Assembly (NCBI GenBank): GCA_022664555.1
Contig: GCA_022664555.1_4839.1
Source of the DNA: Escherichia coli
Lineage (GTDB): Bacteria > Pseudomonadota > Gammaproteobacteria > Enterobacterales > Enterobacteriaceae
Length of the DNA stretch: 23,185 nucleotides
Reading direction: 5' to 3' (one strand)
Under the pieces are notes generated by a model. The model made no database searches and was not told the DNA's origin. It was given only the letters and a program-made list of their open reading frames with translations. The translations under genes were made by a program, and so were the position numbers. This document shows, one piece after another, positions 1,041 through 19,774 of this stretch. The stretch's first letter is position 1. Every line of letters starts with the position of its first letter.

Positions 1041-1080
1041 CACGAAAAAGGGATAGAGCAATAATACCCTATCCCCCTTT
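1041..1080 (-). terminator. intrinsic terminator hairpin, probably bidirectional
   Basis: GGGATAG...CTATCCC stem (about 1050-1075). On the minus strand it is followed by TTTTTCG; on the plus strand by CCTTTATTGAA. Lies between the stop of CDS 1093..1506 and the start of CDS 681..1031. Confidence 0.6.
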
Positions 1081-1092
1081 ATTGAAGAACGA

Positions 1093-1506
1093 TTAGTCTT
1101 CAGATTCTACTTTACCGCCTCGTAGATCCCGAACTGGTTTACCGTCCGGTGTCATCACATAAATGGTGTTGATTGTCTCAAACCAAGACAGCTGGTCAAC
1201 ACCCTCGGTGTATGGAGTCACCGGAACAGAAGTCTTGACCTCTTTGCCTTTCGTGTTCGGATGTTCAACCACATCCAAGAACGCACATTTCCCGCTCGGA
1301 AGGATCACACCATCAGTAAACAGCACGATCTTCTTGCGAGGGTTGCTGGCCTCACCCAGGCACACCACCAGATGATGGATCATCTCGGGGCGGTCAATCA
1401 ACATGTCGTCTTTGATAATCCCTTGCTTGATAGCAGAGATCACCACCTCATCCAACAGAGCCTGCTGTTGGTCCAGTGTCAGGGATTCAGTGAGTTTCAC
1501 GCTCAT
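1093..1506 (-). CDS. hypothetical protein (137 aa)
   Basis: Track ORF 1093..1575 trimmed to the in-frame ATG at 1506 (MSVKLTES...), which sits 5 nt downstream of the LemA-like gene stop and has an AAGG SD. Confidence 0.55.
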   Translation of the reverse strand: MSVKLTESLTLDQQQALLDEVVISAIKQGIIKDDMLIDRPEMIHHLVVCLGEASNPRKKIVLFTDGVILPSGKCAFLDVVEHPNTKGKEVKTSVPVTPYTEGVDQLSWFETINTIYVMTPDGKPVRDLRGGKVESED

Positions 1507-1510
1507 GACA

Positions 1511-2080
1511 TCAGCCTTTGAAGTTAATCGGTTTCTGAATACCAGCGTCGAACGCGGCCTGGGTACGGGTATCACTCACCACTTGGCAGGTCTTGTCAAG
1601 GTCGATGCGCGGGTAGCCGAACATGCCAGCAATCAACGAACCAGGGAACTGAGCCAGCTTGGTTTCGTATATTGTGCAGATATCCAGCTTCTTGGTCTGA
1701 CTGATGCGGAATTCATCACGCCCAGAACTGATCACCACCTGGATCTCTTTGTACAGGCTGGAATCGAACTGAATATTCTGCTCCTGGATCCACTGCATGA
1801 CGGCCTTGGAACCATCAGCGCCATAACGCCCTTCGAACGTGCCTTTGATCACTTCCTTCAGGCCGTCTTTATACATGTCAGGAATCTGCGCCGTCTCTTG
1901 AACTTTGAGCGTATAGTTGCTCAGGTAGTTCTCGGAGTCTTTGTTGAACTTCTTGACCTGCTGCTCAGTGCGGTTGAAGTCGTTGAAGTAGCTGATGACT
2001 GTACCGATGCCGAGAATCACTACACCCAGCAAAGCCAAACCAATTATCCAACCTGTTGCAATACCCTTAGATTGAGACAT
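1511..2080 (-). CDS. LemA-family membrane protein (189 aa)
   Basis: N-terminal transmembrane helix (GIATGWIIGLALLGVVILGIGTVI) followed by a soluble domain whose C-terminal segment YETKLAQFPGSLIAGMFGYP matches the LemA signature (Y-N-x-x-I-x-x-F-P-x-x-L-x-A-G-x-F-G-F) as recalled from the family. AGAGGAAG SD 5 nt before the ATG at 2080. Confidence 0.55.
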   Translation of the reverse strand: MSQSKGIATGWIIGLALLGVVILGIGTVISYFNDFNRTEQQVKKFNKDSENYLSNYTLKVQETAQIPDMYKDGLKEVIKGTFEGRYGADGSKAVMQWIQEQNIQFDSSLYKEIQVVISSGRDEFRISQTKKLDICTIYETKLAQFPGSLIAGMFGYPRIDLDKTCQVVSDTRTQAAFDAGIQKPINFKG

Positions 2081-2098
2081 TCTTACTTCCTCTTTTGA

Positions 2099-3106
2099 TT
2101 AAAAATTAAACGGATAACGACGACGGCCACCATTGTACTCCATTCGCTGCAATATGAAAATTGCGGTGAATGGTAAGCAGCCCAGCAGAACAATAACCAC
2201 AACTTCCCAGGTCTTGAGTTCCCGCCACTTCAGGTACTCCATTTCCTTCATCTCAACGCGGTTGTAGCCTTTGGTGATGTTAGCGACAACATCAGCCATG
2301 ACACCGACGCCCATGTCGTGGCCTGTGAGAGTCATGCCATTGCGAGAGTGTAGTTCACGGTTATGCATACCATCAGCGAACGAAGTGCTCTTACCCCAGT
2401 TGATCTTCAGATCTTTGCTGATGTCGGTCACGACGATAACGTCGTTCTTTTTACCACCATCCCAAGCATAGACCAAGCCCTGGAAGTATTCAACTGGCTG
2501 ACCGGATGTCACAACCCAGACGATATTGACCTGACGTGAAGCACCTAATGTTTTCAGAGTATTGTTCAGATAGTCGTTCCAGTATGTGGTCGGTAACGCC
2601 AGGCCGGACACATTCAACACACGAGTGACACGATAGTAGTCATAGACCTCAGGGTACTTGGGAATCTTGTCTTTGAAGCGTTCAGCAAACTGCTGGTCTG
2701 AGCGGGAGAACAGAGAGTCCTTGTTGCCCAGCACATAGTTCATGTAGTAATGCTCACGGGCGGCAGGTTCACCAATCTGAACCTGTGTCCAGCGCGGCGG
2801 TTGACCAAGACCACGGCGGTCAATGCGGTCAATCGTCAGATTACCAACAGTCGTCAGCACATCCCAGTCCACGTCATACGAATGCTCATAACAGGTGCTG
2901 CAATGGCGGGTACGGGTGCAGGACTTACTACTGCCGGAGCCAGAGCACGATGTGGTGTAGTAACAGTTGCATTCATATGAATGCTCACAGCTCACCTCAT
3001 TCCGCTCCTTTGCAGTGACGTACCCGTTCAGGATCTCAATATCCCCTGAACTGCCAAGGGAGAACGCAGCATAAGTCCCCGCCTGAATCAGACACGATAG
3101 CACCAC
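2099..3106 (-). CDS. membrane protein with Cys-rich N-terminal region and TPM-like domain (335 aa); start uncertain
   Basis: Hydrophobic N-terminus, a run of about 10 Cys in 45 residues (CEHSYECNCYYTTSCSGSGSSKSCTRTRHCSTCYEHSY), a segment W-x-GGKKNDVIVVTDISKDLKINWGKS resembling the TPM-domain core (W-x-G-x-K-x-GVLLLV-x-DR-x-IEVGYG), and a C-terminal TM helix (VVVIVLLGCLPFTAIFIL). The track start is a GTG (3106-3104) with only a weak SD. Confidence 0.45.
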   Translation of the reverse strand: MVLSCLIQAGTYAAFSLGSSGDIEILNGYVTAKERNEVSCEHSYECNCYYTTSCSGSGSSKSCTRTRHCSTCYEHSYDVDWDVLTTVGNLTIDRIDRRGLGQPPRWTQVQIGEPAAREHYYMNYVLGNKDSLFSRSDQQFAERFKDKIPKYPEVYDYYRVTRVLNVSGLALPTTYWNDYLNNTLKTLGASRQVNIVWVVTSGQPVEYFQGLVYAWDGGKKNDVIVVTDISKDLKINWGKSTSFADGMHNRELHSRNGMTLTGHDMGVGVMADVVANITKGYNRVEMKEMEYLKWRELKTWEVVVIVLLGCLPFTAIFILQRMEYNGGRRRYPFNF

Positions 3107-3210
3107 TACAATCTCGGTCGATATCTGAGTGTCTTTATGCTAATTGTTATTGTTTTTGTATATCACATATTGTATAGCAAGTACCAATTTCACACCAAAC
3201 TGGATGTAGA

Positions 3211-3429
3211 TCATTTGGATTCACCGACAAGCTGCGCCTTGGTCATCCCAAGGAGTTGATCTTTATGCTCAGGATTGGCACCGTTCTTTAACAACAAATC
3301 CCAACGCTCTTCATGGTACTGTGGGTCCAGTGCTTCATCAAATGTGATGTGGTGGCGGAACATAATAGTTGCCACTGAATGGACACAGTGAGCGATTGCG
3401 CGCTTCATTGTTCGGGTATTCTTGATCAT
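3211..3429 (-). CDS. hypothetical protein (72 aa)
   Basis: Track ORF 3211..3450 trimmed to the ATG at 3429-3427, which has GGAGGGTG SD 6 nt upstream and forms an ATGA overlap with the stop of CDS 3426..3650. Confidence 0.55.
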   Translation of the reverse strand: MIKNTRTMKRAIAHCVHSVATIMFRHHITFDEALDPQYHEERWDLLLKNGANPEHKDQLLGMTKAQLVGESK

Positions 3430-3650
3430 CTTGTACACCCTCCGACACAAATGATATTCAGTTCGCCACGGACAAACCCATTCTTACCGGAGGATTTGTT
3501 GCCGTTCAGCATTTTCCACAGCCCATCAGCGTCGCCCAATTCCGGCATCTGATACTGTACCACAGGGGTCTTGCGATCTTCTTCGAGCATTACAGACACC
3601 ATAGATTCGATATCCAGGGAGTCCATATCTTCAATTCGTTGCATTGCCAT
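3426..3650 (-). CDS. hypothetical protein (74 aa)
   Basis: Track ORF; ATG at 3650 preceded by AAGAGGA SD (spacing 6). Confidence 0.6.
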   Translation of the reverse strand: MAMQRIEDMDSLDIESMVSVMLEEDRKTPVVQYQMPELGDADGLWKMLNGNKSSGKNGFVRGELNIICVGGCTR

Positions 3651-3662
3651 AGTGAAATCCTC

Positions 3663-3860
3663 TTAATAGAGTTTGGTGTATGTTTGTTTGACACACATAA
3701 AAGTGCTCATATATCTTTGTGATTCCACCAAATGAGCAAACGCCTTTTCTGCCGAACTCTTGTCCTTGAACTCCAGAACGGAAGTGTCTACTGCAATAGA
3801 TTGATTCTTCCCGTCGAAGCCAACGGTTGTCACTAAGATCTTATAATCTTGGGTTTCCAT
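3663..3860 (-). CDS. hypothetical protein (65 aa)
   Basis: Track ORF 3663..3932 trimmed to the ATG at 3860 (METQDYKIL...), preceded by AAGGA SD. The 5' extension in the track would read through the terminator hairpin. Confidence 0.55.
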   Translation of the reverse strand: METQDYKILVTTVGFDGKNQSIAVDTSVLEFKDKSSAEKAFAHLVESQRYMSTFMCVKQTYTKLY

Positions 3861-3871
3861 GATGTATATCC

Positions 3872-3917
3872 TTGCAAAAAAGAAAGGGGAACGGGCTAAT
3901 AATAACCCATTCCCCTT
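3872..3917 (-). terminator. intrinsic terminator, probably bidirectional
   Basis: GGGGAACGGG...CCCATTCCCC stem (3886-3895 / 3906-3915, one mismatch). Minus strand has TTTCTTTTTT after it; plus strand has TTTATTGAAGG. Confidence 0.6.
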
Positions 3918-3943
3918 TATTGAAGGAAGCAACCCCAGTCAGA

Positions 3944-4111
3944 TTACTTTTTCTTCAGCTCGTCCAGTTTGGCTTCGATCTGGTCCAGAATCTCTTTGCC
4001 TTTCTGAACAATCACTTCACCATCTTGCGCGTGTTTACGGAAGACCAGAGCACCAGCGATGAAGCCGACAACCGCGCTAGGAAGCGCATAAACCAGCAGA
4101 TCTTGTAACAT
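3944..4111 (-). CDS. small membrane protein (55 aa)
   Basis: Hand-translated ORF below the track cutoff: MLQDLLVYALPSAVVGFIAGALVFRKHAQDGEVIVQKGKEILDQIEAKLDELKKK. ATG at 4111-4109, TAA at 3946-3944, GAGGA SD about 8 nt upstream. One predicted TM helix. Confidence 0.5.
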   Translation of the reverse strand: MLQDLLVYALPSAVVGFIAGALVFRKHAQDGEVIVQKGKEILDQIEAKLDELKKK

Positions 4112-4116
4112 GATAA

Positions 4117-4141
4117 TATCCTCGCTTTATAGGCGAGGATA
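4117..4141 (-). promoter_or_regulatory. 9-bp hairpin that contains the SD of CDS 3944..4111
   Basis: TATCCTCGC / GCGAGGATA perfect inverted repeat with a 7-nt loop, sitting exactly between the stop of CDS 4148..5383 and the ATG at 4111. The GAGGA of the downstream SD lies inside the stem. Confidence 0.4.
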
Positions 4142-4147
4142 TTTATA

Positions 4148-5383
4148 TCAGCGTTTCAAGAGTGTCATGAGGTTGACGCTGCTGGACTTCGACTTGTCCT
4201 CAACCTTGCGCACAGGCATCTTCAGGTTCGTACATACCTCGGATGGTTCCCAGCGCGTACCCTTTTGCAGGTGCCAGATATGCAGAGGAACACCAGTCTC
4301 AAAGAACACAGGCATCTTCCACTTCTGGACGCCTGGAACGTGCCCTGCAGGAGCCTTTTCGCACAACAGGGTATCTGGCAGCCAGAGCGAACGGGCTTCC
4401 CAGAGCGCTGCGCAGGAGTATTCAGGCCAGACGCGTTCCATGTAGTCTATCTCATCCCAGGTACGCTCTGCGTCCCACCCGATGTAACGGGTATTCTTCA
4501 GTCGGAAGAATTTCTTCAGCCAACAAGCACCGGAGGTTTCAAAGTTCAGACGGTTGATGAACGTCAGATGCCCAAACTCAGCCACACAATCCTGGAACGC
4601 CTGCTCAAGGTCGGCCTCAAGGATGTCACACTCTTCATCCGTGATAGGACAACCGTTGATCTTTTTCTTCCCGTGTTTAGTCACCCAATCGTCACGGTTG
4701 GATAAGAACGCCGCGCCATTACGGTTGGACTCGCTTCCATCACGATCACGCAGCATGAAGCCAGGGACGTCAATGGTGTATTCGTTTCCGAATACCATGT
4801 TCAGGGCTTCCAGGAAGTTCCAGGCGCTCAGGCGACCGAAGTATTTCCAGGACATCGCCGTGTCCCACAGCTGGGTGAATTGTTCTGTCTTATCGATGCA
4901 CACCAACATCCCACGGAAAGCGTCATATTGAGTACGGCCAGCCAGCCAGTCAATATAGGACTGTACACACGGAATCATCTTGGACTTGCGGTAGCGACAG
5001 TCGGTATCGAATCGCATGCGATCAAAGTTCAGATTATACCAATCAGAGAAGCGCTGCATCTCTTCCTTAGACTGAGGCGGCACAGGGAACTCACTGTAGA
5101 TAGTCCACGGTCCGACAGCGTTATAGCAACAACCCCACAGGAATGCCATCCAGATCTTGCGCTCGACTTTCTGTTCGAGGCTGATGCCTTCAGTGGCTTC
5201 GATCGCATAGTCCATCAGACGCATCTGCTGGTTGTGCTCTTCTGTGTAGGACAGCGCCTCCACCCAAGCCTTGAGCAAGTACATGCGATTCTCAGGCTTG
5301 CGATAATCAACAGCTAGGTCAATCGGGTACTTCCATTCAGCCGGAGGCGTATAGCCCGTCGGCATTTTAGATAAATGATGCAT
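4148..5383 (-). CDS. hypothetical protein, Trp/Cys-rich (411 aa)
   Basis: Long uninterrupted track ORF; ATG at 5383 with GAGGAAG SD. No motif I can assign with confidence. Confidence 0.65.
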   Translation of the reverse strand: MHHLSKMPTGYTPPAEWKYPIDLAVDYRKPENRMYLLKAWVEALSYTEEHNQQMRLMDYAIEATEGISLEQKVERKIWMAFLWGCCYNAVGPWTIYSEFPVPPQSKEEMQRFSDWYNLNFDRMRFDTDCRYRKSKMIPCVQSYIDWLAGRTQYDAFRGMLVCIDKTEQFTQLWDTAMSWKYFGRLSAWNFLEALNMVFGNEYTIDVPGFMLRDRDGSESNRNGAAFLSNRDDWVTKHGKKKINGCPITDEECDILEADLEQAFQDCVAEFGHLTFINRLNFETSGACWLKKFFRLKNTRYIGWDAERTWDEIDYMERVWPEYSCAALWEARSLWLPDTLLCEKAPAGHVPGVQKWKMPVFFETGVPLHIWHLQKGTRWEPSEVCTNLKMPVRKVEDKSKSSSVNLMTLLKR

Positions 5384-5938: not shown

Positions 5939-5940
5939 GA

Positions 5941-8619: not shown

Positions 8620-8957
8620 TTGTCTTCCTCAACTTTATCATAGCCTGTAGCAACACACTGTTCTTCGGTACAATCTGCATACAGAACGACGGAGGCCTGC
8701 TTCACGTAGGTGATGCAGTGGTAAGTTTCGTCTTCCTGGATGGAATCGTCATAGTTGCAGACAGTTTGGAGCGGACCTGGGGTGGCGTTATCCAACGCCG
8801 CATGCGCCTTAATGGTGTCTTCCATCTTGGACACAGCCTGCTCATTGGTGAACGTCGGCGCGTCAAGGTCTACAGTAGAAGCAACGTCCAGAAGGGTGGA
8901 ACACGCAGTGGTAGAGAAAGCCAGAGCGCACACCAGAAGAATCTTATTGAGTTTCAT
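8616..8957 (-). CDS. secreted or lipoprotein-like small Cys-containing protein (113 aa)
   Basis: Track ORF 8616..8966 trimmed to the ATG at 8957 with AGGTGA SD. Signal peptide MKLNKILLVCALAFSTTA followed by Cys; further Cys residues downstream suggest a periplasmic disulfide-bonded protein. Confidence 0.55.
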   Translation of the reverse strand: MKLNKILLVCALAFSTTACSTLLDVASTVDLDAPTFTNEQAVSKMEDTIKAHAALDNATPGPLQTVCNYDDSIQEDETYHCITYVKQASVVLYADCTEEQCVATGYDKVEEDK

Positions 8958-8986: not shown

Positions 8987-9019
8987 AGGGGGAATTATAT
9001 CCCCCTTTGGTTTATTGAA
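8987..9019. terminator. GC hairpin between the DNA polymerase stop and the next gene (terminator or attenuator)
   Basis: AGGGGGA / TCCCCCT stem (8987-8993 / 9000-9006), followed on the plus strand by TTGGTTTATTGAA. The minus-strand U-tract is poor. Confidence 0.4.
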
Positions 9020-12019
9020 TCAACCTTTCTTCTTTTGCATCATGGCAAGAAGGTTCACACGGCGCTTGTGTGACCAGCCGACCACGTCGAGGATAGACTG
9101 AATCGGATCAATGAAGGACTTCTCAAAGGCCGCCTGATAATCCACCCATTTGCCCAGACCAAGCTCCTCGGGGAAGAACTCAGGATATGCAAAGTAATTC
9201 TGGCCGAATGGGTTGCCCGGCTTCAACAACACCATCTGTACCTTATCACCCGACTCGATCATCGGTAGACCCAGATCTTCGTTCTTCTCAACCAGACGGT
9301 TGTAACCCACACAAGCCTTTGCAGCAAAATGAGCACCAGAGATGAACGATCCGTCAGCAGCCACACACTTCTCTATGTCGGACACGCCTGACGCCTTGGC
9401 GATATCGTCTACAGAGAGTTTCATGTACTCCTCTTTGTACTGGGAGATGAGCGTCTGTACTTCCTCTTCGGTGCCGAGTAGGATCTTCTCATAGCACTTG
9501 ACAAGACGCTCACGACACCATTCCGGCGTGGTGGACTTGCGGGCTTCCAGACCTTTGAACTTGATCTTCGGCTTCTCGTACTTGATACCCTCACTGTCGT
9601 ACACGGCCATGGCATACATCTTCTTGGCTCGCCAGACAGCGGCTGACGCAATGACCTCACGCTCCCACACCATGCGCTGTTCAAATCCGTTCATGGTGTT
9701 ACACAGAAGCTGTGCCCACTCATTGGTCTTCGGCTGGTAGTTGTCTTTGATCCATTGGTCGATATTATCAACCATAGCATGATGGTCAGTAACATCAGGC
9801 CACAACTGCTTGACAAGACGCTCAATGCAGATGTAGTTGGAGTCGGTATCCCCTGCGATGACGAAGTCCTGGCCTGTTGTACCACACAGCTTGTTCAGAT
9901 AATCATCGGTGTAACGCTTGTTCCACTTGTTGATCAGCTGACCGGATGTGGTGATGGCTTCGGCAATGTTGAGGTTGAAGTACTCTTTGAACCAGACGTT
10001 TGAGATCGCGCCATAACCTGCGTTCATCAAGATCTTCAGACCTTGCTGTAGGGTATCTTGAGCGACGCCCAGGTCTTCCCACTTCTTCATCACTTCGGTC
10101 AGGGCATCAAGATCAATGTTCTTGTGCTCTTCATACCACTCTGGGTCATAATAGCGAGACTTCATGGCAGACTCAAGATGGAAGTCACCCTTCGACATCT
10201 CTTTACACCAGCCAGCCCACTGCTCATACTTCAGACCCTTAGCTTTCTCTACTTTACGGTCGCTGTAGATACCACGCATGATTTCAGACAGGAACGACAT
10301 CTTCTCGTTGCTGAAGAATTGAACGTTCGGCGTGAACGACACGTTGTAACGGCGCAGGGTTTCAAAGTGGAACTCACCCAGGGCAACCAACTCATCAACA
10401 ACCTGCAGGCGTTCGTCAACCGCACGCAACAGCTTGTCGTGAAGGGCTTTCATCAACCGACGTTTGTGCATCGGCGTTGCCATGTTATTCATCTGAGCAG
10501 CCAGCTCTTCACACATAGCCTCAATGATCTCGCGGCGCTGGTGTTTGTCGCCAACGATAGTCTCTGGACCGAGGTTGTACTGCTGAATGATGTGAGGATA
10601 CAGGGAGTTCAAATCTTCCGAGAAGACCCAGAAGTAGATTCCTGGTGTCACATCCATGACGTATGCACCCTCAAAGTCGGTCGGACCATCGTATACACGC
10701 TGGATCTTAGGCACTACCCCCTTCTCGTACAGGCGATAATAGCACATCGCCAGCCACGGAGCCACAGTGCCCAGACCGTCTTCATAGTTGGACTTGGTGC
10801 GGTACGCAAGGACGAACATCAGCTGGAGCAGACGCAGCTTATGTTCAAGTCGCCATACCAGCTTAACGTCTTTGATACCATATCGGGTGTGTTTGCAGTA
10901 GTCGTTGAAGTACAGATCAAAGAGCGACTTGCTCTCACTGTAGTCCATCTTCTTCTCACCCAGCTCACAATACGCAATCCAGTCAAGAGAGTAGCGTTCA
11001 CGGGTGGTGTACGTGTGTTTCTTGTAGATCTGCATATAATCGAGCATAGGACAGCCCACGAACTGATACGTCGTGATATCGCCCTTCTTATCGCGAATGA
11101 TACGCTTCTTAATGATACCCCAAGGACTCAGACGCGACGTTTCAGCCTCACCCAGAACCTGATTCATGCGCTCAACAAGATAAGGGCTATCAAACGTCTC
11201 AATGTTCCAGCCAGTCCATCCGTCGAACTGACGCTCCGACCAGAAGTCTAGGAACGAGCGCAGCAGATCTTGTTCGGTGGTGAACTCCTGATAAACAACC
11301 TCAAGGCCGCCGATCTCTTTGTCTTCGGTGTCGTATGCGAATTTGTTACGATCTTTGGCACAGGGCATACCCCAGACCATGAACTTATTGGTCGCCATGT
11401 CCTGAAGCTGGATCAGGGTAATGGGGAACGCCGCATTCATGTCTTGGGTGATCTTACCGTTGCTGTCAATGATAGGGAACTTATCAGTGACGTTGTTGCT
11501 GATAAAGGAACTGGGAAAGTGCTCACGGACAAAATCATGGTTGGCCAGAACTTGTTTATGGAAGCGGCGAATGCGCGCCTCATTTCCTTTGAACGTCTGC
11601 TGCTCAATGGTTGGGTGAGGGAATGGACCTTTGGTCATCTTTCCATCTTTCCACCCGGCGGAGAACACTTCGATATCGAGGTTAGCAATATGGATGTTGG
11701 AATAATCCGGCTCAATCTTTCCGGGAAAGCTATGGGCAATGAACTGGTATGCATAATCGGTCTGCCCGTAAATGGCAGCACCCTGGACTTCCTTGTACTC
11801 TTCAAGATAGTTGTCAGCGTCACGCATGGAAGGGAACTGCTTGGCTACCAGGGGTTCATTGAGAAGGCCGACCTTTTCAACATTTGAATAGTCAGCCGTG
11901 GGTAAATAGAGAGTGGGTTCGAATTTCTTTTTCAACAGACGGCGATTACCCATGTCATCTGCAATTCGAATCAACAGGTCATTGCCCCTGCGGGCAACGT
12001 TCGTATAGAAAACGGTCAT
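9020..12019 (-). CDS. 43: family-B DNA polymerase, T4 gp43-like (999 aa)
   Basis: 3-kb track ORF. Exo I motif (ANLDIEVF), polymerase motif A (SEDLNSLYPHII) and motif C (IAGDTDSNYI). The N-terminus (FY...QFPSMRDA) resembles T4/RB69 gp43 as recalled. GGAG SD 6 nt before the ATG at 12019. Confidence 0.95.
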   Translation of the reverse strand: MTVFYTNVARRGNDLLIRIADDMGNRRLLKKKFEPTLYLPTADYSNVEKVGLLNEPLVAKQFPSMRDADNYLEEYKEVQGAAIYGQTDYAYQFIAHSFPGKIEPDYSNIHIANLDIEVFSAGWKDGKMTKGPFPHPTIEQQTFKGNEARIRRFHKQVLANHDFVREHFPSSFISNNVTDKFPIIDSNGKITQDMNAAFPITLIQLQDMATNKFMVWGMPCAKDRNKFAYDTEDKEIGGLEVVYQEFTTEQDLLRSFLDFWSERQFDGWTGWNIETFDSPYLVERMNQVLGEAETSRLSPWGIIKKRIIRDKKGDITTYQFVGCPMLDYMQIYKKHTYTTRERYSLDWIAYCELGEKKMDYSESKSLFDLYFNDYCKHTRYGIKDVKLVWRLEHKLRLLQLMFVLAYRTKSNYEDGLGTVAPWLAMCYYRLYEKGVVPKIQRVYDGPTDFEGAYVMDVTPGIYFWVFSEDLNSLYPHIIQQYNLGPETIVGDKHQRREIIEAMCEELAAQMNNMATPMHKRRLMKALHDKLLRAVDERLQVVDELVALGEFHFETLRRYNVSFTPNVQFFSNEKMSFLSEIMRGIYSDRKVEKAKGLKYEQWAGWCKEMSKGDFHLESAMKSRYYDPEWYEEHKNIDLDALTEVMKKWEDLGVAQDTLQQGLKILMNAGYGAISNVWFKEYFNLNIAEAITTSGQLINKWNKRYTDDYLNKLCGTTGQDFVIAGDTDSNYICIERLVKQLWPDVTDHHAMVDNIDQWIKDNYQPKTNEWAQLLCNTMNGFEQRMVWEREVIASAAVWRAKKMYAMAVYDSEGIKYEKPKIKFKGLEARKSTTPEWCRERLVKCYEKILLGTEEEVQTLISQYKEEYMKLSVDDIAKASGVSDIEKCVAADGSFISGAHFAAKACVGYNRLVEKNEDLGLPMIESGDKVQMVLLKPGNPFGQNYFAYPEFFPEELGLGKWVDYQAAFEKSFIDPIQSILDVVGWSHKRRVNLLAMMQKKKG

Positions 12020-12098: not shown

Positions 12099-12671
12099 AT
12101 GGCAATCCCCCTCGTTGGTATGATCCCAGGGGCGCTCAAGCAACTCTGGAACCTCGGGACTGATTTGATACAATATAAGAGGGAAGTTGTACAGGCAAAA
12201 CACGACTTCAAGCTGGAGTACATCAAATACTCATCAGATTGTGAGCTGTCTAAGATCACCGAAGTCGGCGTGTCTTGGAAAGACGAATTCTGGACTATCG
12301 TGTTGGCCATACCCGCCATCCTCGTCATGACTGCTCCGGTTGTGGAACTGATTCTGTTCCCTGGTGAGTATCATAAAGGGGATTTCATCAAAGCAGTAAT
12401 CGGTGGCCTTCAGGCACTAGACACCGCACCTGAATGGTATACCTATTCGTTATTGACAGCAATTAGTGCATCATTCGGTATCAAAGGCTACAACCACTAC
12501 AAAAGCAACAGGCGAAAAGCCCAAGCTATGGATGCTCTCAAGCAATTTGGGGTTCGGGTCGTACAGAAAGATCCCACTGTTGTTACTCAGTCGGGTGCTC
12601 CCGATCTTGAGTCTGCTCCCCCAGCTGGGTCTACTGCGACCTCTGGTGCGTGGCCTGATCTGAAGAAATAA
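12099..12671 (+). CDS. membrane protein (190 aa)
   Basis: Track ORF 12081..12671 (TTG start) trimmed to the ATG at 12099 with a canonical AAGGAG SD 6 nt upstream. Two hydrophobic segments (AIPLVGMIPGAL; FWTIVLAIPAILVMTAPVVELILF). Diverges from the polymerase gene. Confidence 0.6.
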   Translation: MAIPLVGMIPGALKQLWNLGTDLIQYKREVVQAKHDFKLEYIKYSSDCELSKITEVGVSWKDEFWTIVLAIPAILVMTAPVVELILFPGEYHKGDFIKAVIGGLQALDTAPEWYTYSLLTAISASFGIKGYNHYKSNRRKAQAMDALKQFGVRVVQKDPTVVTQSGAPDLESAPPAGSTATSGAWPDLKK

Positions 12672-12677
12672 GTTCAA

Positions 12678-12702
12678 GGGGAGGAAACTCCCCTTTCTTT
12701 TG
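12678..12702 (+). terminator. intrinsic terminator
   Basis: GGGGAG-GAAA-CTCCCC (6-bp stem, GNRA-type tetraloop) followed by TTTCTTTTGG, just after the stop of CDS 12099..12671. Confidence 0.75.
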
Positions 12703-12713
12703 GTGTTTAGGGA

Positions 12714-12926
12714 ATGAATGTGGTAAACAAGAGATTGCTCGTCACCCAAGGCGGGGCGACGATAGTACGCGGAAGGATCTATGAACAAACACAGCTGGGC
12801 GATCATAAGACGCGCCTGACTGTTAAGGCTCCCGATGGTGGTTGGCCGACAAAGGTGATTGTCCCAGACGGTCTCATAGAACGAGGGACGGCGACGTACA
12901 GGGGAGCAGAGTTCAAAATTTATTAA
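12714..12926 (+). CDS. small hypothetical protein (70 aa)
   Basis: Track ORF. Start ambiguous: ATG at 12714 has AGGGA only 1-2 nt upstream; GTG at 12720 would give better spacing. Confidence 0.45.
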   Translation: MNVVNKRLLVTQGGATIVRGRIYEQTQLGDHKTRLTVKAPDGGWPTKVIVPDGLIERGTATYRGAEFKIY

Positions 12927-12943
12927 AATATTTATTGAATAAA

Positions 12944-12972
12944 GTTTACTTCTTCAATAACTGGCGTATACT
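12944..12972 (+). promoter_or_regulatory. sigma70/T4-early-like promoter candidate for CDS 13022..13579
   Basis: GTTTAC (12944-12949), 17-bp spacer, TATACT (12967-12972). AT-rich upstream region containing the palindrome TTTATTGAATAAA (12931-12943). Transcription start would be about 40 nt before the ATG. Confidence 0.4.
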
Positions 12973-13021
12973 TCTAATTGTAGTACGAACAAACAACAAT
13001 CTGAAGAGAAGGAAATACATC

Positions 13022-13579
13022 ATGGCAATCGAAATTATCGCTCAATCCAAATCTGGTAAAACTGTAATGTACGGCACTGAAGAAGGCCGCGCAATCACCA
13101 CTCTGGGCACAATTGACGGTTCCAACCCAGTGAAAGGCGGTCGCTACCTGGTTGAATACGGTTCACACCTGCTGATGGTAAGCAAAGTCGATGGTCGTGA
13201 AATCATGATTCCCCGCAAAGAGTACTTCGACTCGCGCATTGAAGCCATGAACTTCTTCCTTTTCCAGGAACGTCACGAACTGTTCGTTGAAGCGAAAGAC
13301 GCAGGCCTGGACGATGCGACTGCCGAACTGATCGCTGAAGGTAAAATGACTCTTGAGGCTGCTCTGGGTGACATGGATTGCGATGCTGAAGCCCATTACA
13401 TCGAATATTCCGCTTATCAGAATGAATGCGAAGACGATCCTGAAGATGACGGCTTCGACCCTGACCTTCACGGTGGCGAGGATGACAATACTCCTTCCCT
13501 GGAAGTGATCATGGCAGGCGGTCAGGCCGCTTGGGAGTGGCAGAACGAAAAGAACGCCTGGCTGGATTCTCACCTTTAA
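13022..13579 (+). CDS. hypothetical acidic protein (185 aa)
   Basis: Track ORF 12842..13579 trimmed to the ATG at 13022 (AAGGAAA SD, spacing about 8). The 5' extension in the track overlaps the preceding gene and the promoter-like region. Confidence 0.6.
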   Translation: MAIEIIAQSKSGKTVMYGTEEGRAITTLGTIDGSNPVKGGRYLVEYGSHLLMVSKVDGREIMIPRKEYFDSRIEAMNFFLFQERHELFVEAKDAGLDDATAELIAEGKMTLEAALGDMDCDAEAHYIEYSAYQNECEDDPEDDGFDPDLHGGEDDNTPSLEVIMAGGQAAWEWQNEKNAWLDSHL

Positions 13580-13589
13580 TGTGAAGAAA

Positions 13590-13620
13590 TAAAGAAAGGG
13601 GCTTAACGCCCCTTTTCTTA
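13590..13620. terminator. bidirectional intrinsic terminator between convergent genes
   Basis: AAAGGGGC-TTAAC-GCCCCTTT stem (GGGGC 13598-13602 / GCCCC 13608-13612, extended by A-T pairs) with T-tracts on both strands. Confidence 0.7.
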
Positions 13621-14076
13621 TTCTTCCCAGAAGTCTTCGTCGTCCCCGACAGCAGCCAGTTCCGTGTCCAGTTCTTCATCGGTAAACGGTGGCAGCACCC
13701 CGTTCTGAATCAGATAATCCATCTCATCGTCTTCCAGCTGCAGGTCGGTGGCAATATACAGCGCTCCACTGCCTTCTTCGTCCGTCTCGATGCTGTATGA
13801 AGTGTATGGCACTCCATTCACTGTAATGATGATAGAGGTCGGATCCTTGGGATCTACGTGCGCCTCGAACGGCACACCATCAATCGGTGCATCTTCCAGG
13901 AAGGTAGCAAGTGCTACGGCGGCGCGGACAACATCAGTGCCTTCAACGCCCGCATAGATCTCTTCCGCGCCTGTCTCTTCACGATCAAACAGCTCAATCG
14001 TGATACCGTCTTGAACACCAGTCCATACAGGGATGTCATTGGTGTATTCTGATTCAAACAATTTGGAGGTTGGCAT
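13618..14076 (-). CDS. hypothetical acidic protein (152 aa)
   Basis: Track ORF; ATG at 14076 with GAGGAA SD 5 nt upstream. Strongly Asp/Glu-rich. Confidence 0.6.
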   Translation of the reverse strand: MPTSKLFESEYTNDIPVWTGVQDGITIELFDREETGAEEIYAGVEGTDVVRAAVALATFLEDAPIDGVPFEAHVDPKDPTSIIITVNGVPYTSYSIETDEEGSGALYIATDLQLEDDEMDYLIQNGVLPPFTDEELDTELAAVGDDEDFWEE

Positions 14077-14101
14077 GTTGGGTTCCTCAGTGGGTTAGCC
14101 A

Positions 14102-14212
14102 TATGGGGTATTTAGGCTTCCCGCTTGGCGAGGCCTGGTTTGTACAGGGCACCTCTAGGAAATATTGGAGGAAGGTTTTCATAGATACCCCACACGGATT
14201 GTATGGGGTATT
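14102..14212 (-). promoter_or_regulatory. intergenic array of ATACCCC(A) repeats, with a late-promoter-like CTAAATAC
   Basis: On the minus strand AATACCCCATA occurs twice (plus 14102-14113 and 14202-14212), with an inverted copy (plus 14185-14194) that forms an 8-bp hairpin ATACCCCA / TGGGGTAT (14185-14192 / 14203-14210). The proximal copy reads CTAAATACCCCATAT about 30 nt upstream of the ATG at 14076. Confidence 0.35.
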
Positions 14213-14221
14213 CAGGAGGGA

Positions 14222-15415
14222 TCAGGAAGGGGTGAAGTCGTTTACAGGAACTGTTTCAGGGATAGCCAGCTCAGGGCATGCTGCCTTCATCGACTCGATG
14301 TACGGCTTGCTACCCACAATCCAGAACAGAGTGTTCTCATTGAGCAACTCGGGCTTGTGTTGCTGAACCCAGGTCATGACCTTGCCTTCATAGCGAGGAT
14401 GCAACTCAATATCGCCCCACTGATATTCCATCAGGTCATTATAACGAACCCAATTAGTGGTATGAAGATCCCAATGGTGTACCTCAAAGCGAGGAAGCAC
14501 GACCTCTGGCTCTTCCTTCTGCCTGATACCACTTAGGAGGCCAGCCAGCGAAACGCTCTTAGAGGCATGCTGAAGCTCCTTCTTGCCGTGTACATAGTCT
14601 GGGTTGTCGTGATAGCGACGGGTAAAGTCGACAATGTGCGGCAGATTGGCATGTTTGCCGATGATGCGCAGACGACTCTCGATAAAGTCCAGACGGTTCG
14701 GACCGATGCCAATCAGATACACACGCTTCAGATTAGGCTTCGGATGCATTGCCAGCCCGGTCAGGATGCTTGTGCAAGAGTTGCACGATCCGGCTGGGAT
14801 GATCAGGTCAGTAATGTGATCAGGAATGTTGGCAACCTGCTCGCCACCCAACATATGGAACCCAGCAATGCGCTCAGGGGAGTGGGCTGTATGGTCGAGG
14901 GTGATACCATACTCCAGATAATACGCCTTTGGATTCTGTTGTTCGATCAACTTCTTACAGCGCGGCTGGATGGTGCTGTTGTAACCCGAGCCGACGAAGT
15001 TGAACTCACTACCAAACCAGGCTGACATTACCACCATTTCATGGTTCATACAGGTGGTGGGTTTGGTCGCGCCGAGCACAGTAGTTGTCTTGCCGCCGAA
15101 GTGCCGAGAGACTGCTGTCGCCATAGGGGACTGCGGACTACCAACGACAGTACCATGGATGATGTCAGGGGAGCCTCCGGCCTTGAGGTGCTCAACCATC
15201 AACCAGATGGCCTGGCGGAGTTTGCTGCCATTGATGCCCTGCTTGGCGTTGGCATAGTTAGACAGCGGCGCAAAATAATCTTCACGCTTGAACCAGACCT
15301 GCTGGTTGGTTTCGGGATTGACGACAAGTTCGCACGGGGTGTGCTTGTAGAGATAGTCTTCCCAGTGAACCAGATTGCGGTCGAGGGAAAGGGTATCGAA
15401 AATGGTCTTGTTCAT
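14222..15415 (-). CDS. PLP-dependent enzyme, ACC deaminase / D-cysteine desulfhydrase-like fold (397 aa)
   Basis: Track ORF 14222..15436 trimmed to the ATG at 15415 (GGAGA SD, spacing 7). WFKREDY...GINGSKLRQAIWLMVEHLKAGG...IIHGTVVGSPQSPMATAVS matches the pattern YIKRDD...GGNKLRKLEFLV...LIT.GAIQSNH of that family as recalled, including the candidate PLP-binding Lys. Confidence 0.55.
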   Translation of the reverse strand: MNKTIFDTLSLDRNLVHWEDYLYKHTPCELVVNPETNQQVWFKREDYFAPLSNYANAKQGINGSKLRQAIWLMVEHLKAGGSPDIIHGTVVGSPQSPMATAVSRHFGGKTTTVLGATKPTTCMNHEMVVMSAWFGSEFNFVGSGYNSTIQPRCKKLIEQQNPKAYYLEYGITLDHTAHSPERIAGFHMLGGEQVANIPDHITDLIIPAGSCNSCTSILTGLAMHPKPNLKRVYLIGIGPNRLDFIESRLRIIGKHANLPHIVDFTRRYHDNPDYVHGKKELQHASKSVSLAGLLSGIRQKEEPEVVLPRFEVHHWDLHTTNWVRYNDLMEYQWGDIELHPRYEGKVMTWVQQHKPELLNENTLFWIVGSKPYIESMKAACPELAIPETVPVNDFTPS

Positions 15416-15485: not shown

Positions 15486-16142
15486 TTATTTCTTGAATAA
15501 ACGAAGGAACTTCATCATGTTTTCCATGAAAGTCGGCTTCTTGACCTTTTGTTTTACCGGAGCGCCCTGATCATTCAGAACACGACTGACCGGAGGAGTA
15601 GGTGGTGTCGGCGCTTTCGTTTCACAGGCCGGAACGATGTTCACGTCATGATGAGAAGACTCAGATGTAGTGTTAACAACATTGTTCTCCTGGACGACAG
15701 GCTTGACGAGATTCTTTTCGTACTCACGCGCCATGGCCTGATACATCAGATTCAAATCCACCAGATCAACAGACTTGACCTTGCGACGACGCCAATTGGC
15801 GCTTTCTTCGCCATAGAAATCATATCCGTTTCTGATCAGCCAGTGTACGGCTTGTTCAAAAGAACCGAAGACCATAAGCGGAGCGCCCTGGCCTTTCTCA
15901 GATTGTTCCAGGCTACTATAACCCATCAATACAACCTGGCCTTTGATACTCAAATCAAACGTCATACCAAGGTTCGGGATGTTTTTATCGCGGCGGAAGA
16001 ACCCGCCATCACGGTAGACGTAAACAGGCGAAAGGAACTCATTCAGAGTACGCTTGACACCCTTGTATTGGAAGAGTCTGACAATTGGAGGGGTGTCATG
16101 GGAAATCACTTCGTTCAATTCCCAGATAGAAACATTACGCAT
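15486..16142 (-). CDS. hypothetical protein (218 aa)
   Basis: Track ORF; ATG at 16142 with GAGGAT SD 6 nt upstream. Proline-rich linker (KAPTPPTPPV) and basic C-terminus. Confidence 0.6.
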   Translation of the reverse strand: MRNVSIWELNEVISHDTPPIVRLFQYKGVKRTLNEFLSPVYVYRDGGFFRRDKNIPNLGMTFDLSIKGQVVLMGYSSLEQSEKGQGAPLMVFGSFEQAVHWLIRNGYDFYGEESANWRRRKVKSVDLVDLNLMYQAMAREYEKNLVKPVVQENNVVNTTSESSHHDVNIVPACETKAPTPPTPPVSRVLNDQGAPVKQKVKKPTFMENMMKFLRLFKK

Positions 16143-16295: not shown

Positions 16296-16352
16296 ATACC
16301 ACATCGATGGGATGGGTTGAAAGACTACACGCTTGCACTGGTACTACCCTAT

Positions 16353-16380: not shown

Positions 16381-16512
16381 AGTCGTCGACGTAGAGAAAG
16401 CTATTTGCATTTCACTATCCTCGCCGCGATTTTCTTAACTTCCTAAACACCCCGATTACGAGAGAGTCGACATGCACATCTTCTAACTCTTCAGGAAGTC
16501 ACGCCCGTAATT

Positions 16513-16601
16513 TGGCGGAAGGTGAAGGATTCGAACCTTCGGGGGCTAAAAGCCCCACTCGATTAGCAATCGAGTCCCTTAAACCTCTCGGGCAACCTTC
16601 C
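16513..16601 (-). tRNA. tRNA-Ser (anticodon GCU), class II with long variable arm, CCA encoded
   Basis: Reverse complement folds by hand into a cloverleaf: acceptor GGAAGGT/ACCTTCC (7 bp perfect), anticodon stem CTCGA/TCGAG with loop TTGCTAA, variable arm GGGGC-TTTTA-GCCCC, T-arm GAAGG-TTCGAAT-CCTTC, discriminator G, CCA. Confidence 0.9.
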
Positions 16602-16821
16602 AATTTGGACGGGCTTCGCACCCGATTGAGCATTTGATCTACCGTAGCCCAACTCCCCGCGCTTCTCAGCGCCGATTGGTTAACTGGCGACCAGTGCCTT
16701 CTGGTTCGATCTCCTAGAAGTTTACATGCTTTGCTGCCGACCATTTCTGGTAGTTAGGGCATCGTTTCCGATGTGGAGTCACCCCATTTTATACACAGCT
16801 GGCTGCAATGCTTACTGTGTT

Positions 16822-16898
16822 TGGTGATCCTGGTTGGATTTGAACCAACGACCAATGAATTATGAGTTCACTGCTCTAACCGACTGAGCTACAGGACC
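16822..16898 (-). tRNA. tRNA with CAU anticodon (elongator Met, or Ile2 if lysidine-modified), CCA encoded
   Basis: Reverse complement: acceptor GGTCCTG/CAGGATC, D-arm GCTC-AGTCGGTTA-GAGC, anticodon stem GTGAA/TTCAT with loop CTCATAA, T-arm GTTGG-TTCAAAT-CCAAC, discriminator A, CCA. G1-C72 pair argues against an initiator. Confidence 0.88.
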
Positions 16899-17802
16899 AA
16901 ATTATTGTGTGACCAACCAAGGACTGTCAACCCTTTATCCCGTTTGTGCATGATCAGTTCATGCAGGCCTCTTTGTGCTGCCTCACGGCATGCGCTTCTG
17001 TTGGTCATTGGCTTACACTGTGGCCTCACAACAGGCGTTTATTTTTCCAGGGCTTTCCACTTGCAAGTCTTGACCATACAGGGATACGGGCTTACAAGAT
17101 CGGGTTGGACACAACTTTGATGGCTCTGGTATTAAAGATCCCGCGTCACCCATAGACATGGTTTATAAATCCAGAGCCATCAAAGTTGCAACCAATGTCG
17201 CAACTCGCAGCTTCCATGCAGAAGAAACTTGTCCTCTAACGCTCGGACCAAACGAGGCTGGCTGGTTGATTCAGAGCCGCTGGTTGCTCCAGCAAGCATG
17301 GGTTGATAGCCCGGCAACATAGAATCACCCAAAGTTGAAGAACACTCAGTGGTACAAGCCAGGGATACCAATTTCAGGTCCTTTGCGAGTTCTTTAAATG
17401 CTCTTCATTTTGTGAACTTGAGAATACTACGCCTGTCTCGGGTTTCCCCTTAGTTCGGCCTCCCAGTCCTCGCCGCGCCGGGTAGCTAACCCTGATGGCT
17501 CGTCTGCTACTGAGTTCTTCTTGGTGCCCACCAGTGTCCGGAATGTGTAGGCATCGCAATCTGCAAGGCATGGTCTATTTCACCCAATGCTCTCTCAAGT
17601 TCACAAATCGAAGTGCCCTGACTCAACAGTATAGCCCAATATGCTGTTATCGTCCACCGGATTGGCCACCCACTTCGTAGATCAACCTTTGGGTTTAAGA
17701 TAAATTGTCAAGGCACTTCGATTTGTGTGCCCTTCACCTGCCAGGGATCAGGGCTGATGGCAAGACTTCGCTCACATCTTTCAAGATACTCGTGAGAATA
17801 TC

Positions 17803-17830
17803 CTCAAAGATGTGGGGCCGTTTTTAGGAG
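17803..17830 (-). pseudogene. tRNA 3'-end fragment (T-arm + acceptor 3' strand + CCA), no anticodon arm found
   Basis: Minus strand reads TTGGG-TTCGACT-CCTAA-AAACGGC-C-CCA, the same layout as the two intact tRNAs. No complementary 5' acceptor (GCCGTTT-like) or anticodon stem-loop could be found 60-100 nt upstream. Confidence 0.35.
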
Positions 17831-18803
17831 TCGAACCCAAATGCTTGGCCAGCGCTGACCTTACATCCCATCTGACTTAGGCAACCCACTCCCAGCCCCA
17901 CAACACTCACTACGGTTAAGATTATTGCGTATGTTGTATGGTCTTGCTGGTCACAACTGAAAGGGCACTTAACAGAAGATAGGTCTGATTGCCTCGGATG
18001 ATTTCTCAGTAGCCTAAATGCCCTTACATGTTGTGTGCCCATTATTAATCACAGCGGGCCACTGCGCCGAATTTGGTGATGAGGAATCGGAAGACCTCAC
18101 TGACTTATAGGCTGTTACGCCGCCATCAGAACTTCGGAATCATTAGCAGTTATTTGCTTGGTCAGTTTCTAAAAACCCGCAAAGTCACGCACAACGAAAA
18201 CGAAAACCTGTTTGAGCACAAGACACCATGTCCTGGGTTCACATCGAAGTGTTTGTCTAATGCCCAAACAGCTTTTCGCTTCAGTGGGTTAACTATACTT
18301 TGTAACCCGTTATTGATAAAACCTTTTATTTTTGTTGGCGAGGGTATCACCATCGATTTACCGGAACTTACGCATCCGGCCTCGCCTGTTGGTGATCCTT
18401 CGAATCCGGGAAGATCAGTAGGAACTATGAATCAAGTTAATTCAACCAACAGGAACCTTGTTGCCCTTTGACGCAACATTATGAACCCTCTATGGAAGAC
18501 TCATAATGTTGTGGCGTGATGGAGATTAGCGCCCCCGACCTCCCCTTATACGTTGGTGTCGACTTGCCAACAGGGTGCTCTCTGATTCTGAGCTAATCAC
18601 GCTACAACAGGGAGTTTCGTTCTCCGACGGTCAGTGCGTCCACCGACACCAGCGAGGTTGATATTACGCCTCTATTCGTCACGGTGCCCTGAGACTGGGC
18701 TTTCCTGGTTTCGGGTTCCAGCCCTACTCCCACCGCGCTATTCGCCTCGTGTTTAATACTTTACTACAGCCCAGCTAATTTGAAAAGTCCTCTCCTCTTT
18801 GAG

Positions 18804-18950
18804 CTACACTGCCCACAGCAGTGCGGGCGAACCTTCGCACAAAACCGGATGCGCCGAAGTGGGCGACTGTTTACCGGACTGATCGGGTAGACCCAGGAGA
18901 GTAAAGGTAATCCCGATCAGGAGGATGAGGAGTAACATCATGTAAAACAT
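18804..18950 (-). CDS. small membrane protein (48 aa)
   Basis: Hand-translated ORF below the track cutoff: MFYMMLLLILLIGITFTLLGLPDQSGKQSPTSAHPVLCEGSPALLWAV. ATG at 18950-18948 with a strong GGAAGGGAGGGAA SD 4 nt upstream; TAG at 18806-18804. One N-terminal TM helix. Confidence 0.45.
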   Translation of the reverse strand: MFYMMLLLILLIGITFTLLGLPDQSGKQSPTSAHPVLCEGSPALLWAV

Positions 18951-19007
18951 AGTGTTCCCTCCCTTCCATGCAACTAACTTTACTGCAATTATTTATTGAA
19001 TAAAGCG

Positions 19008-19577
19008 TTATTTTAACACTTCTAACTTCACAATACGACGCAGAAGGTAAACATATTCGCCAGCAGCTTCATGCGTCATATAATGGGTAGAAGGTGTGGA
19101 ATGAGTGTTCTGGGTTTCTTTTAATCCAACACGTTCTGCCCAACCATTAATAGAGTTCCCATAGAAACCGATAATCGCACCAAAATAAATGCGCCCGCTT
19201 TCTGGCTCTAAAACATAGTTGACAGTGAAGCAAATGTCAGAACGAATAGACTCCAGTTTCATACCAACACGACCTTCAGAGAATTCGTTACGAACATATA
19301 AATGACGGAAGCGATCGCGCCGTGCTTGTGATGATTCTTCCAATTCTTGTCGAAGTGAAGAAGTTATGTCAATATTAAATGAAAATGTTGGATTTCGTAA
19401 ATCAGAACGAGCCAACTCTAAGGCAGATTCAATAACGCGGCGGAAATTGATACTTTTACCTGTCAGGCGTTTCACTTCATCGGTGATTGTTTCAAAAGGG
19501 ATTTTCGTGGCGCGTTCCCCTTCGTATTTTGCTAACAAAGGAATAATGTGTTTCATGATTGCTGTGTTAATGTGCAT
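19008..19577 (-). CDS. hypothetical protein in an AT-rich islet (189 aa)
   Basis: Track ORF; ATG at 19577 with GAGG SD about 7 nt upstream. Visibly lower GC and different codon choice from the surrounding genes. No motif I can assign (no GIY-YIG, HNH, Walker or HAD signature). Confidence 0.6.
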   Translation of the reverse strand: MHINTAIMKHIIPLLAKYEGERATKIPFETITDEVKRLTGKSINFRRVIESALELARSDLRNPTFSFNIDITSSLRQELEESSQARRDRFRHLYVRNEFSEGRVGMKLESIRSDICFTVNYVLEPESGRIYFGAIIGFYGNSINGWAERVGLKETQNTHSTPSTHYMTHEAAGEYVYLLRRIVKLEVLK

Positions 19578-19774
19578 TCCGGAGCCTCACTGGATTGATT
19601 AAATGTCTCCGTTATTATATTGGGAGTATGTTTATTGAATATAAACACAGGAATGGCCAATAAAACAATGACAGTGATTATTAATAGGTAAAAACTACTT
19701 TTCTACAACATCAAGAAACTGTATCCTAACGCAGTGCCCTTCGAGTTGTGAGTGTCAACGAACAACGAGAAGCA

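Follow-up and report, generated by a model that had tools for sequence, protein, structure and literature searches.

A 23,185-nucleotide stretch of DNA from an assembly assigned to Escherichia coli (GCA_022664555.1; the whole stretch is called the window below) carries six intergenic copies of the 9-mer TTTATTGAA. Our analysis of its sequence and surroundings indicates that this word, which in reverse complement reads TTCAATAA(A), is very probably part of a published promoter motif of the phage family Ackermannviridae (ViI-like phages), namely its upstream box. The promoter motif itself is already known, and there is little new in the recurring 9-mer. Its original description was reportedly given by Adriaenssens et al. 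in 2012 (Arch Virol). The sequences TTCAAT[N14]TATAAT and CTAAATAcCcc are named as "two unique regulatory motifs" of ViI-like phages in a paper that located both in the genome of an Agtrevirus-like phage (PMC7283392). The paper on phage CBA120 reports eight sigma-70-like promoters only, and its authors state that they were unable to identify early or middle promoters (PMC3184105).

The window belongs to a phage of the Ackermannviridae (Aglimvirinae). It is ~96% identical to Escherichia phage A221 over ~95% of its length; identity is ~90% with Shigella phage Ag3 and 79-82% with phages of the Kuttervirus and Taipeivirus groups. The relatives used for comparison, Ag3, CBA120, Serratia phage IME250 and Klebsiella phage Magnus, are 79-90% identical to the window, and 348 related records were found. 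Genes in the window include two tRNA genes, DNA polymerase and a gp6 baseplate wedge gene, and minus-strand genes predominate from 1 to 19.6 kb.

Exact copies of TTTATTGAA are found at positions 1078, 3916, 9011, 12931, 18992 and 19631, all on the plus strand and none on the minus strand. These are the copies that the preliminary description of this DNA had listed, and its estimate that well under one would be expected at random is also correct: the mean in dinucleotide-preserving shuffles (n = 100) was 0.26, and no shuffle reached six copies. With one mismatch allowed, 17 sites are found, compared with 5.95 expected. Under realistic gene calls, all six copies are intergenic, as had been claimed. 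Copy 1078 lies between a stop codon at 1093 and an ATG at 1031; copy 3916 is 3' of a small membrane-protein gene and 5' of an ATG at 3860; copy 9011 adjoins the stop codon of DNA polymerase at 9020; copy 12931 is between two plus-strand genes; copy 18992 is between a stop codon at 19008 and an ATG at 18950; and copy 19631 is upstream of an ATG at 19577. A minus-strand open reading frame (ORF) at 12471-12806 in the mechanically produced list is annotated in none of the relatives.

Several further features noted in the preliminary description proved to be accurate. On the plus strand, GC hairpins immediately precede copies 1078, 3916 and 9011; TTTATTGAATAAA contains copies 12931 and 18992, the former of which is beside a promoter-like element; and a partial copy, TTGAATAAA, is present at 15493. 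The partial copy comes with neither an associated -10 hexamer nor a conservation argument, and was treated as a chance or degenerate occurrence. That plus-strand copies occur amid minus-strand genes had seemed paradoxical, but five of the six copies appear to function in their minus-strand reading, which is TTCAATAAA, that is, TTCAATAA(A). The plus-strand bias of TTTATTGAA in the window arises mainly because the local genes run on the minus strand.

Four of the copies (1078, 3916, 9011 and 19631) have the form TTCAATAA-N12-TAT(A/T)AT in their minus-strand reading, an arrangement that we call class (a). Expressed as the family motif, TTCAAT-N14-TATAAT occurs in the window twice exactly (8994-9019 and 19614-19639) and twice with one mismatch (TATTAT), in all cases on the minus strand; neither copy 12931 nor copy 18992 conforms to it. 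With up to two mismatches, the motif is found 8 times in the window, versus 1.64 expected. All four class (a) boxes are situated 55-64 nucleotides 5' of a minus-strand ATG that is preceded by a Shine-Dalgarno sequence, and the ORFs downstream of them all match PHROG families. The putative promoter at 1061..1086 (TTCAATAA-AGGGGGATAGGG-TATTAT, including copy 1078-1086) precedes a gene of 116 amino acids that extends from its ATG at 1031 to 681 (phrog_4130). The one at 3899..3924 (TTCAATAA-AGGGGAATGGGT-TATTAT, copy 3916-3924) precedes a 65-amino-acid gene with its ATG at 3860, ending at 3663 (phrog_7747), and that at 8994..9019 (TTCAATAA-ACCAAAGGGGGA-TATAAT, copy 9011-9019) precedes a 113-amino-acid gene running from an ATG at 8957 to 8616 (phrog_3748). 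The fourth, at 19614..19639 (TTCAATAA-ACATACTCCCAA-TATAAT), has no hairpin and is followed by a 189-amino-acid gene (19577 to 19008, phrog_3788).

The box and the -10 hexamer are also conserved between phages. Sites orthologous to those of the window are present in Ag3, CBA120, IME250 and Magnus, and are syntenic across three lineages. At four sites, all 8 positions of the box are invariant in an alignment of six genomes, and at site 1061..1086 both the box and the -10 hexamer are invariant. At site 19614..19639, the box (8/8) and the -10 hexamer (6/6) are invariant and the gap between them is always 12 nucleotides, whereas only 1 of the 12 spacer positions, 1 of 15 upstream flanking positions and 1 of 34 downstream flanking positions are unchanged. 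Invariant box and -10 sequences with a scrambled spacer and scrambled flanks are what two recognition elements at a fixed distance would be expected to show. This footprint is neither the pattern of a copied repeat nor that of a terminator.

Genome-wide counts were performed on the complete A221 genome, of which 86.6% is annotated as coding. The word TTCAATAAA occurs there 14 times, versus ~1.2 expected, and 13 of these fall outside coding DNA. The blocks of plus-strand genes (~21-100 kb) contain eight copies, six of them on the plus strand, and the block of minus-strand genes (129-149 kb) contains six, every one on the minus strand. Three copies (21592, 53574 and 141511) face away from the downstream gene, and each of these is the inverted upstream box of a promoter of a second type, class (b), which is described below. 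Promoter-type copies are co-directional with the downstream gene. Ranking of all 8-mers in the non-coding DNA of A221 places TTCAATAA at the top, with 25 occurrences versus 1.4 expected (and 6 in coding DNA). Next in the ranking are the late motif known from the literature (CTAAATAC) and terminator words. The bipartite motif, if two mismatches at most are allowed, is present 47 times, compared with an expectation of 11.6. Where TTCAAT and TATAAT both occur exactly and are spaced by 6-26 nucleotides, the spacing is N14 in 5 of 11 pairs in A221 and in 8 of 9 pairs in the four relatives. The genome-wide count, which the preliminary description had named as the test that could refute the motif, speaks instead for a real motif that is enriched in intergenic regions and that follows the direction of the downstream gene in its promoter-type copies.

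At three of the class (a) sites, the -10 hexamer is enclosed by a hairpin. Those at copies 1078 and 3916 are 16-bp stem-loops with the -10 within the loop, and both have the form of intrinsic terminators, with a GC-rich stem and then a T-run on the minus strand. The hairpin at 1045..1080 (minus strand) is followed by TTTTT and has a predicted folding free energy (dG) of -27.4 kcal/mol (z score -5.65; 0 of 200 shuffles fold as well). It overlaps the promoter and is likely an intrinsic terminator for the upstream gene, whose stop codon is at 1093. The hairpin at 3873..3918 (minus strand, also delimited as 3883-3918; 16 pairs, dG -31.3 kcal/mol, z score -5.92) has the tail CTTTTTTGCA and is the top-ranked terminator-like site in the window, with the T-run TTTCTTTTTT after the stem. 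At copy 9011, a short hairpin, GGGGGA-TATAAT-TCCCCC (8987..9006, not assigned to a strand), has the -10 as its loop and a stem of 6-7 bp, with a z score of -1.55 in a 61-nucleotide context. It is weak or doubtful as a terminator, because no clear T-run follows on the minus strand. Fold analysis detected no hairpin at copies 12931, 18992 and 19631, the last of which is unstructured. In A221, about half of the 14 class (a) candidates have a stable hairpin (dG of -11 kcal/mol or lower) around the -10.

These structures suggest how terminator and promoter might be combined. The GC hairpins at the first three copies would serve as minus-strand terminators, or as attenuators, of read-through from the upstream gene while enclosing the -10 hexamer of the next promoter. 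Transcripts initiated at the embedded promoter would start in the 3' arm of the hairpin; such transcripts could not form the hairpin and so would escape termination. Terminator and promoter together would then make up a compact cassette of the PeSL type, which is known from T4-type phages and to which we return below.

Copy 12931 has a different context. Its minus-strand reading lacks a -10. The copy itself (12931..12939, plus strand) is an inverted box in an A/T-rich region and is situated 5 nucleotides 5' of the -35 of a predicted class (b) promoter, TTTACT-N16-TATACT (12945..12972, plus strand). This promoter resembles sigma-70 and T4 early promoters and precedes a 185-amino-acid gene (13022-13579, phrog_4823). 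A second TTCAATAA, at 12953-12960, is inside the class (b) spacer and pairs with the upstream box as an inverted repeat that surrounds the -35. The ~110-bp intergenic cassette at 12931 is nearly identical in six genomes. In A221, cassettes like that of class (b) occur at 21.6, 33.1, 53.6, 66.7 and 72.6 kb, with a conserved leader and with the upstream box in either orientation. The repeated unit of promoter plus leader is ~80-110 nucleotides long, and occurs at these A221 sites, at 141.5 kb in the same genome and at 12890-13025 in the window. Most copies of the cassette consist of TTCAATAA or its inverse, then TTTACT-TC-TTCAATAA-N6-TATACT, the conserved leader and GGAACTATATCATG, with box pairs flanking the -35.

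Homology between the window and A221 ends 9 nucleotides into the gene that follows the 12931 cassette, and resumes at a bidirectional terminator (13594-13616; 13586). The intervening gene content is swapped (13031-13585 in the window versus 13681-14930 of A221 L001), and the gene sets of Ag3, CBA120 and A221 at this place differ. Elsewhere, a 286-bp segment (723-1008 of the window), within the gene served by the promoter at 1061..1086, is missing from A221. The swap and the 286-bp indel are suggestive of modular exchange bounded by cassettes.

Copy 18992 (18992..19000, minus strand) is also atypical. It is part of the near-palindrome TTTATTCAATAAA, 50 nucleotides 5' of an ORF for a 48-amino-acid membrane protein (18950 to 18804, phrog_8415), and is conserved in six genomes, although its eighth base varies between A and C. 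No -10 is present at the N12 position. The site can be read as TTTATT-N16-TAAAGT or as TTCAAT-N12-TAAAGT, and it is probably a weak promoter of uncertain class.

Two other minus-strand sites are of note. A same-family variant of the promoter, ATCAATAA-N12-TATAGT (18292..18317), is kept in six genomes and has no ORF downstream; it is ~76 nucleotides 5' of the conserved core (18216-18017) of an RNA that resembles transfer-messenger RNA (tmRNA), discussed below. The second published family motif is present as CTAAATACCCC at 14105-14115, 39 nucleotides 5' of the ATG of the gene at 14076-13618 (phrog_3852), and we take it to be a late promoter.

The preliminary description had offered the conserved U-tract of terminators, a regulator-binding site and the signature of a mobile regulatory cassette as possible identities of the 9-mer, and related alternatives to a promoter box need to be weighed. 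That the 9-mer is the T/A-rich tract flanking the GC hairpin of intrinsic, possibly bidirectional, terminators is very unlikely. Three copies do adjoin strong GC hairpins, where on the plus strand the motif is on the 3' side like a U-tract and on the minus strand it supplies an A-rich tract ahead of the hairpin, as in bidirectional terminators. However, the real T-runs of the hairpins at copies 1078 and 3916 are on the minus strand, at the other side of the hairpin, which places the 9-mer upstream of the hairpin there and not in the U-tract. Moreover, the other three copies and most copies genome-wide are hairpin-free, with stable hairpins at only about half of the A221 class (a) sites. A terminator tract would not be expected to keep a fixed 12-nucleotide distance to TATAAT, nor would the unconserved and unstructured spacer between the invariant elements at 19614..19639 be expected of it. 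The U-tract proposal is accordingly abandoned. It is very unlikely, too, that the repeats are mainly substrates of recombination, such as PeSL-like mobile cassettes, whose conservation would reflect spread and not selection for promoter activity. Class (b) sites do share ~80-100 nucleotides of promoter plus leader, homology with A221 is interrupted from just beyond the 12931 cassette as far as a terminator, and PeSLs have been shown to mediate swaps of this kind in T4-type phages. Nevertheless, copying and pasting cannot leave only two boxes preserved, as is seen at 19614..19639, the orthologous sites are syntenic across three lineages, and only a single swap was seen. Of the mobile-cassette proposal, what stands is the combination of hairpin and promoter, as in PeSLs, and the location of the 12931 cassette beside a swap in gene content.

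The remaining alternative is that TTCAATAA is primarily an operator for a DNA-binding regulator of phage or host, for example a repressor or a nucleoid-type protein, and is not an element used by RNA polymerase. In its favor, inverted or direct box pairs flank the class (b) -35, the arrangement TTATTGAA-N12/13-TTCAATAA recurs at 12931 in the window and at 21.6 and 72.6 kb in A221, two of the window copies are near-palindromic, and A221 encodes HU-like and histone-like proteins. We nonetheless consider this explanation improbable, given that each class (a) site has one box only, whose distance from a near-consensus -10 hexamer is strictly fixed, and no other candidate for a -35. Such a layout is characteristic of core promoter elements or class II-type activator sites, and not of a free-standing operator. 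Roles as operator and as promoter element are not mutually exclusive, however. The earlier proposal of a regulator site is partly right, in that the word is very probably a promoter recognition element held 12 nucleotides from a -10 hexamer.

The preferred explanation, that TTCAATAA is the upstream box of a promoter, raises the question of what reads it. We suppose that the -10 hexamer would be read by host sigma-70 RNA polymerase, with the box, at about -32 to -25, standing in for the -35 contact. The box is too close to the -10 hexamer to act as a normal -35, and its reader might be region 4 of sigma in an unusual register or else a phage factor. Readings with ordinary spacing were also considered. 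A -35-like hexamer at 16-18 nucleotides was found only at copy 9011 (TTGATT-N18), where it appears to be accidental, and at none of the other copies; by inspection, no extended -10 (TGn) is present. An alternative -10 three nucleotides downstream (TTCAAT-N17) was rejected, as the hexamers at that position are poor.

Several observations weigh against this explanation. A 14-nucleotide spacer is non-functional for ordinary recognition of -35 and -10 by sigma-70, and no homologue was detected of MotA or AsiA, the proteins that enable T4 to use its middle promoters. A search of the whole A221 genome with T4 MotA and AsiA (tblastn and phmmer) gave no significant match, the best having E = 0.013 and falling inside a topoisomerase gene. 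The CBA120 paper likewise reports that no such homologue is found (PMC3184105). In addition, copies 12931 and 18992 break the rule of N12 and a -10 and have to be explained in other ways, a recognizable -10 is missing at some A221 boxes, and the published family motif is known to us through a secondary citation (PMC7283392). Finally, a literature search found no transcript 5'-end, transcriptome or reporter data for any Ackermannviridae promoter, and for this reason promoter function rests on sequence logic and conservation.

One more specific possibility, which we put forward tentatively and regard as doubtful, is that TTCAATAA is the site of an early Ackermannviridae protein that reprograms host sigma-70 polymerase, with a single box activating class (a) promoters and paired boxes shutting off those of class (b). 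If this were true, one protein and one word would drive the switch from early to middle transcription, and the protein would be a non-homologous analogue of MotA/AsiA. Apart from the mechanism, the motif is useful for annotation. Phages of this kind serve in biocontrol and as reporter phages, and most of the deposited genomes have no promoter features. The design of box plus hairpin also constitutes a compact terminator/promoter part.

The RNA downstream of the variant promoter is a by-product of this analysis that may matter more than the promoter motif. It has a core of ~200 nucleotides on the minus strand (18216 to 18017), with flanks extending to about 17812 and 18285, and is unannotated. 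It appears to be a phage RNA not described before, with a likeness to the mRNA-like domain of tmRNA. Within the core, the frame GCU AAU GAU UCC GAA GUU CUG AUG GCG GCG UAA encodes ANDSEVLMAA* and has the context of a resume codon. The E. coli SsrA tag is ANDENYALAA. A tag-like frame is present in 128 of 130 copies of the RNA, and the tag is clearly SsrA-like in 125; the commonest variants are ANDDVVLMAA, ANEEMYLAVA, ANDEQFLAVA, ANDDLMLMAA and ANDNTFLAVA. By inspection, the stop codon of the tag frame is in a hairpin loop, which is also its place in helix 5 of tmRNA. Across 22 diverse sequences, pairing is 100% in four helices, among them a pseudoknot, and compensatory changes are many. Over the alignment as a whole, 91% of cells pair, versus 33-48% in slid controls.

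Automated tools recognize the element only at relaxed stringency. ARAGORN reports nothing at default settings and a tmRNA with this tag at the 80% threshold. Searches with Rfam models give consistent matches to tmRNA families that are below threshold in the window and in 6 of 6 diverse homologues, and none at gathering thresholds. No tRNA-like domain conserved across phages was seen. In a survey from 2014, the only phages listed with ssrA are mycobacteriophages and Bacillus phage G (PMC4131195), and our literature search for the tag sequences turned up none. The element may represent a new class of phage RNA.

The distribution of the RNA is broad. By blastn, the core matches 469 GenBank phage records from unrelated families, and the listed matches are almost all unannotated. 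Phages that carry it include HK620, Pollock, CS01, Akira, Aeromonas phage pIS4-A and Bas81. It is also present on at least 120 contigs of IMG/VR and in 137 of 5,426 complete E. coli genomes. The element often adjoins tRNA genes or resides in a late-gene leader downstream of Q, the latter in HK620 and in an E. coli 55989 prophage. In HK620, it is between pR'/qut and the late terminator tQ; in the one complete E. coli genome that was examined, it is in a prophage, between the genes for the Q antiterminator and holin.

Two additional structures are encoded nearby on the minus strand. A very stable long hairpin at 17095-17209 (dG -54 kcal/mol, z score -6.6) has a perfect stem of ~19 bp and is in a gene-free stretch 3' of the tRNA genes; Rfam returned only spurious matches resembling miRNA precursors, on both strands. 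A degenerate tRNA-like sequence at 17813-17889 has a T-arm (GGGTTCGACTCC) and a 7-bp acceptor-like stem, and is called by ARAGORN as tRNA-Leu(cag) only at the 80% threshold. It is probably the "degenerate tRNA" mentioned for CBA120 (PMC3184105).

The promoters described here can be compared with four known systems. They share with Rho-independent terminators the hairpins at copies 1078 and 3916, which have GC-rich stems and, on the coding (minus) strand, T-runs behind them. They differ in that the 9-mer is not the U-tract but precedes the hairpin, as seen on the transcribed strand, and in that some copies of it have no hairpin at all. T4 middle promoters are closer in geometry. The T4 MotA box is 12 +/- 1 bp from the -10 and centered at -30, where it replaces the -35 (PMC2988021), and the box of the window is likewise 12 bp from a near-consensus -10, in place of a canonical -35. 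The genes served are similar as well, being of the pre-replicative or nucleotide-metabolism type, for instance nrdA and, separately, the ligase operon in A221. However, the MotA consensus is (a/t)(a/t)(a/t)TGCTTtA, whereas TTCAATAA is without the TGCTT core, and a MotA/AsiA homologue is undetectable in A221 by sequence search. Given a T4-like geometry with the wrong box and no such homologue, we do not classify these elements as T4 middle promoters.

PeSL and PmSL elements are composite promoter-terminator cassettes of T4-type phages (Arbiol 2010; Comeau 2014). A PeSL is defined by a polyG...polyC stem-loop that is between the upstream box and the -10 or that overlaps the -10 (PMC2839356), and such a stem-loop is present at the first three copies in the window and at about half of the 14 class (a) candidates in A221. 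The sites in the window are similarly intergenic, with a Shine-Dalgarno sequence and an ATG shortly downstream, and the class (b) core TTTACT-N16-TATACT fits the T4/PST consensus for PeSL early promoters, TTTACW-N17-TAYWAT. The differences are that the virus family and the upstream box are others, and that class (a) has a box at N14 in contrast to the -35 and -10 at N17.

The closest match is the Ackermannviridae motif itself. The window shares its sequence, its spacing, its virus family, its intergenic location, its co-direction with the downstream gene and its companion CTAAATAcCcc, and nothing essential differs. To this known motif, our analysis adds that the box spans 8-9 nucleotides (TTCAATAA[A/C]), that the -10 is contained in a terminator-like hairpin at about half of the sites, and that the same word is used in a second promoter architecture.

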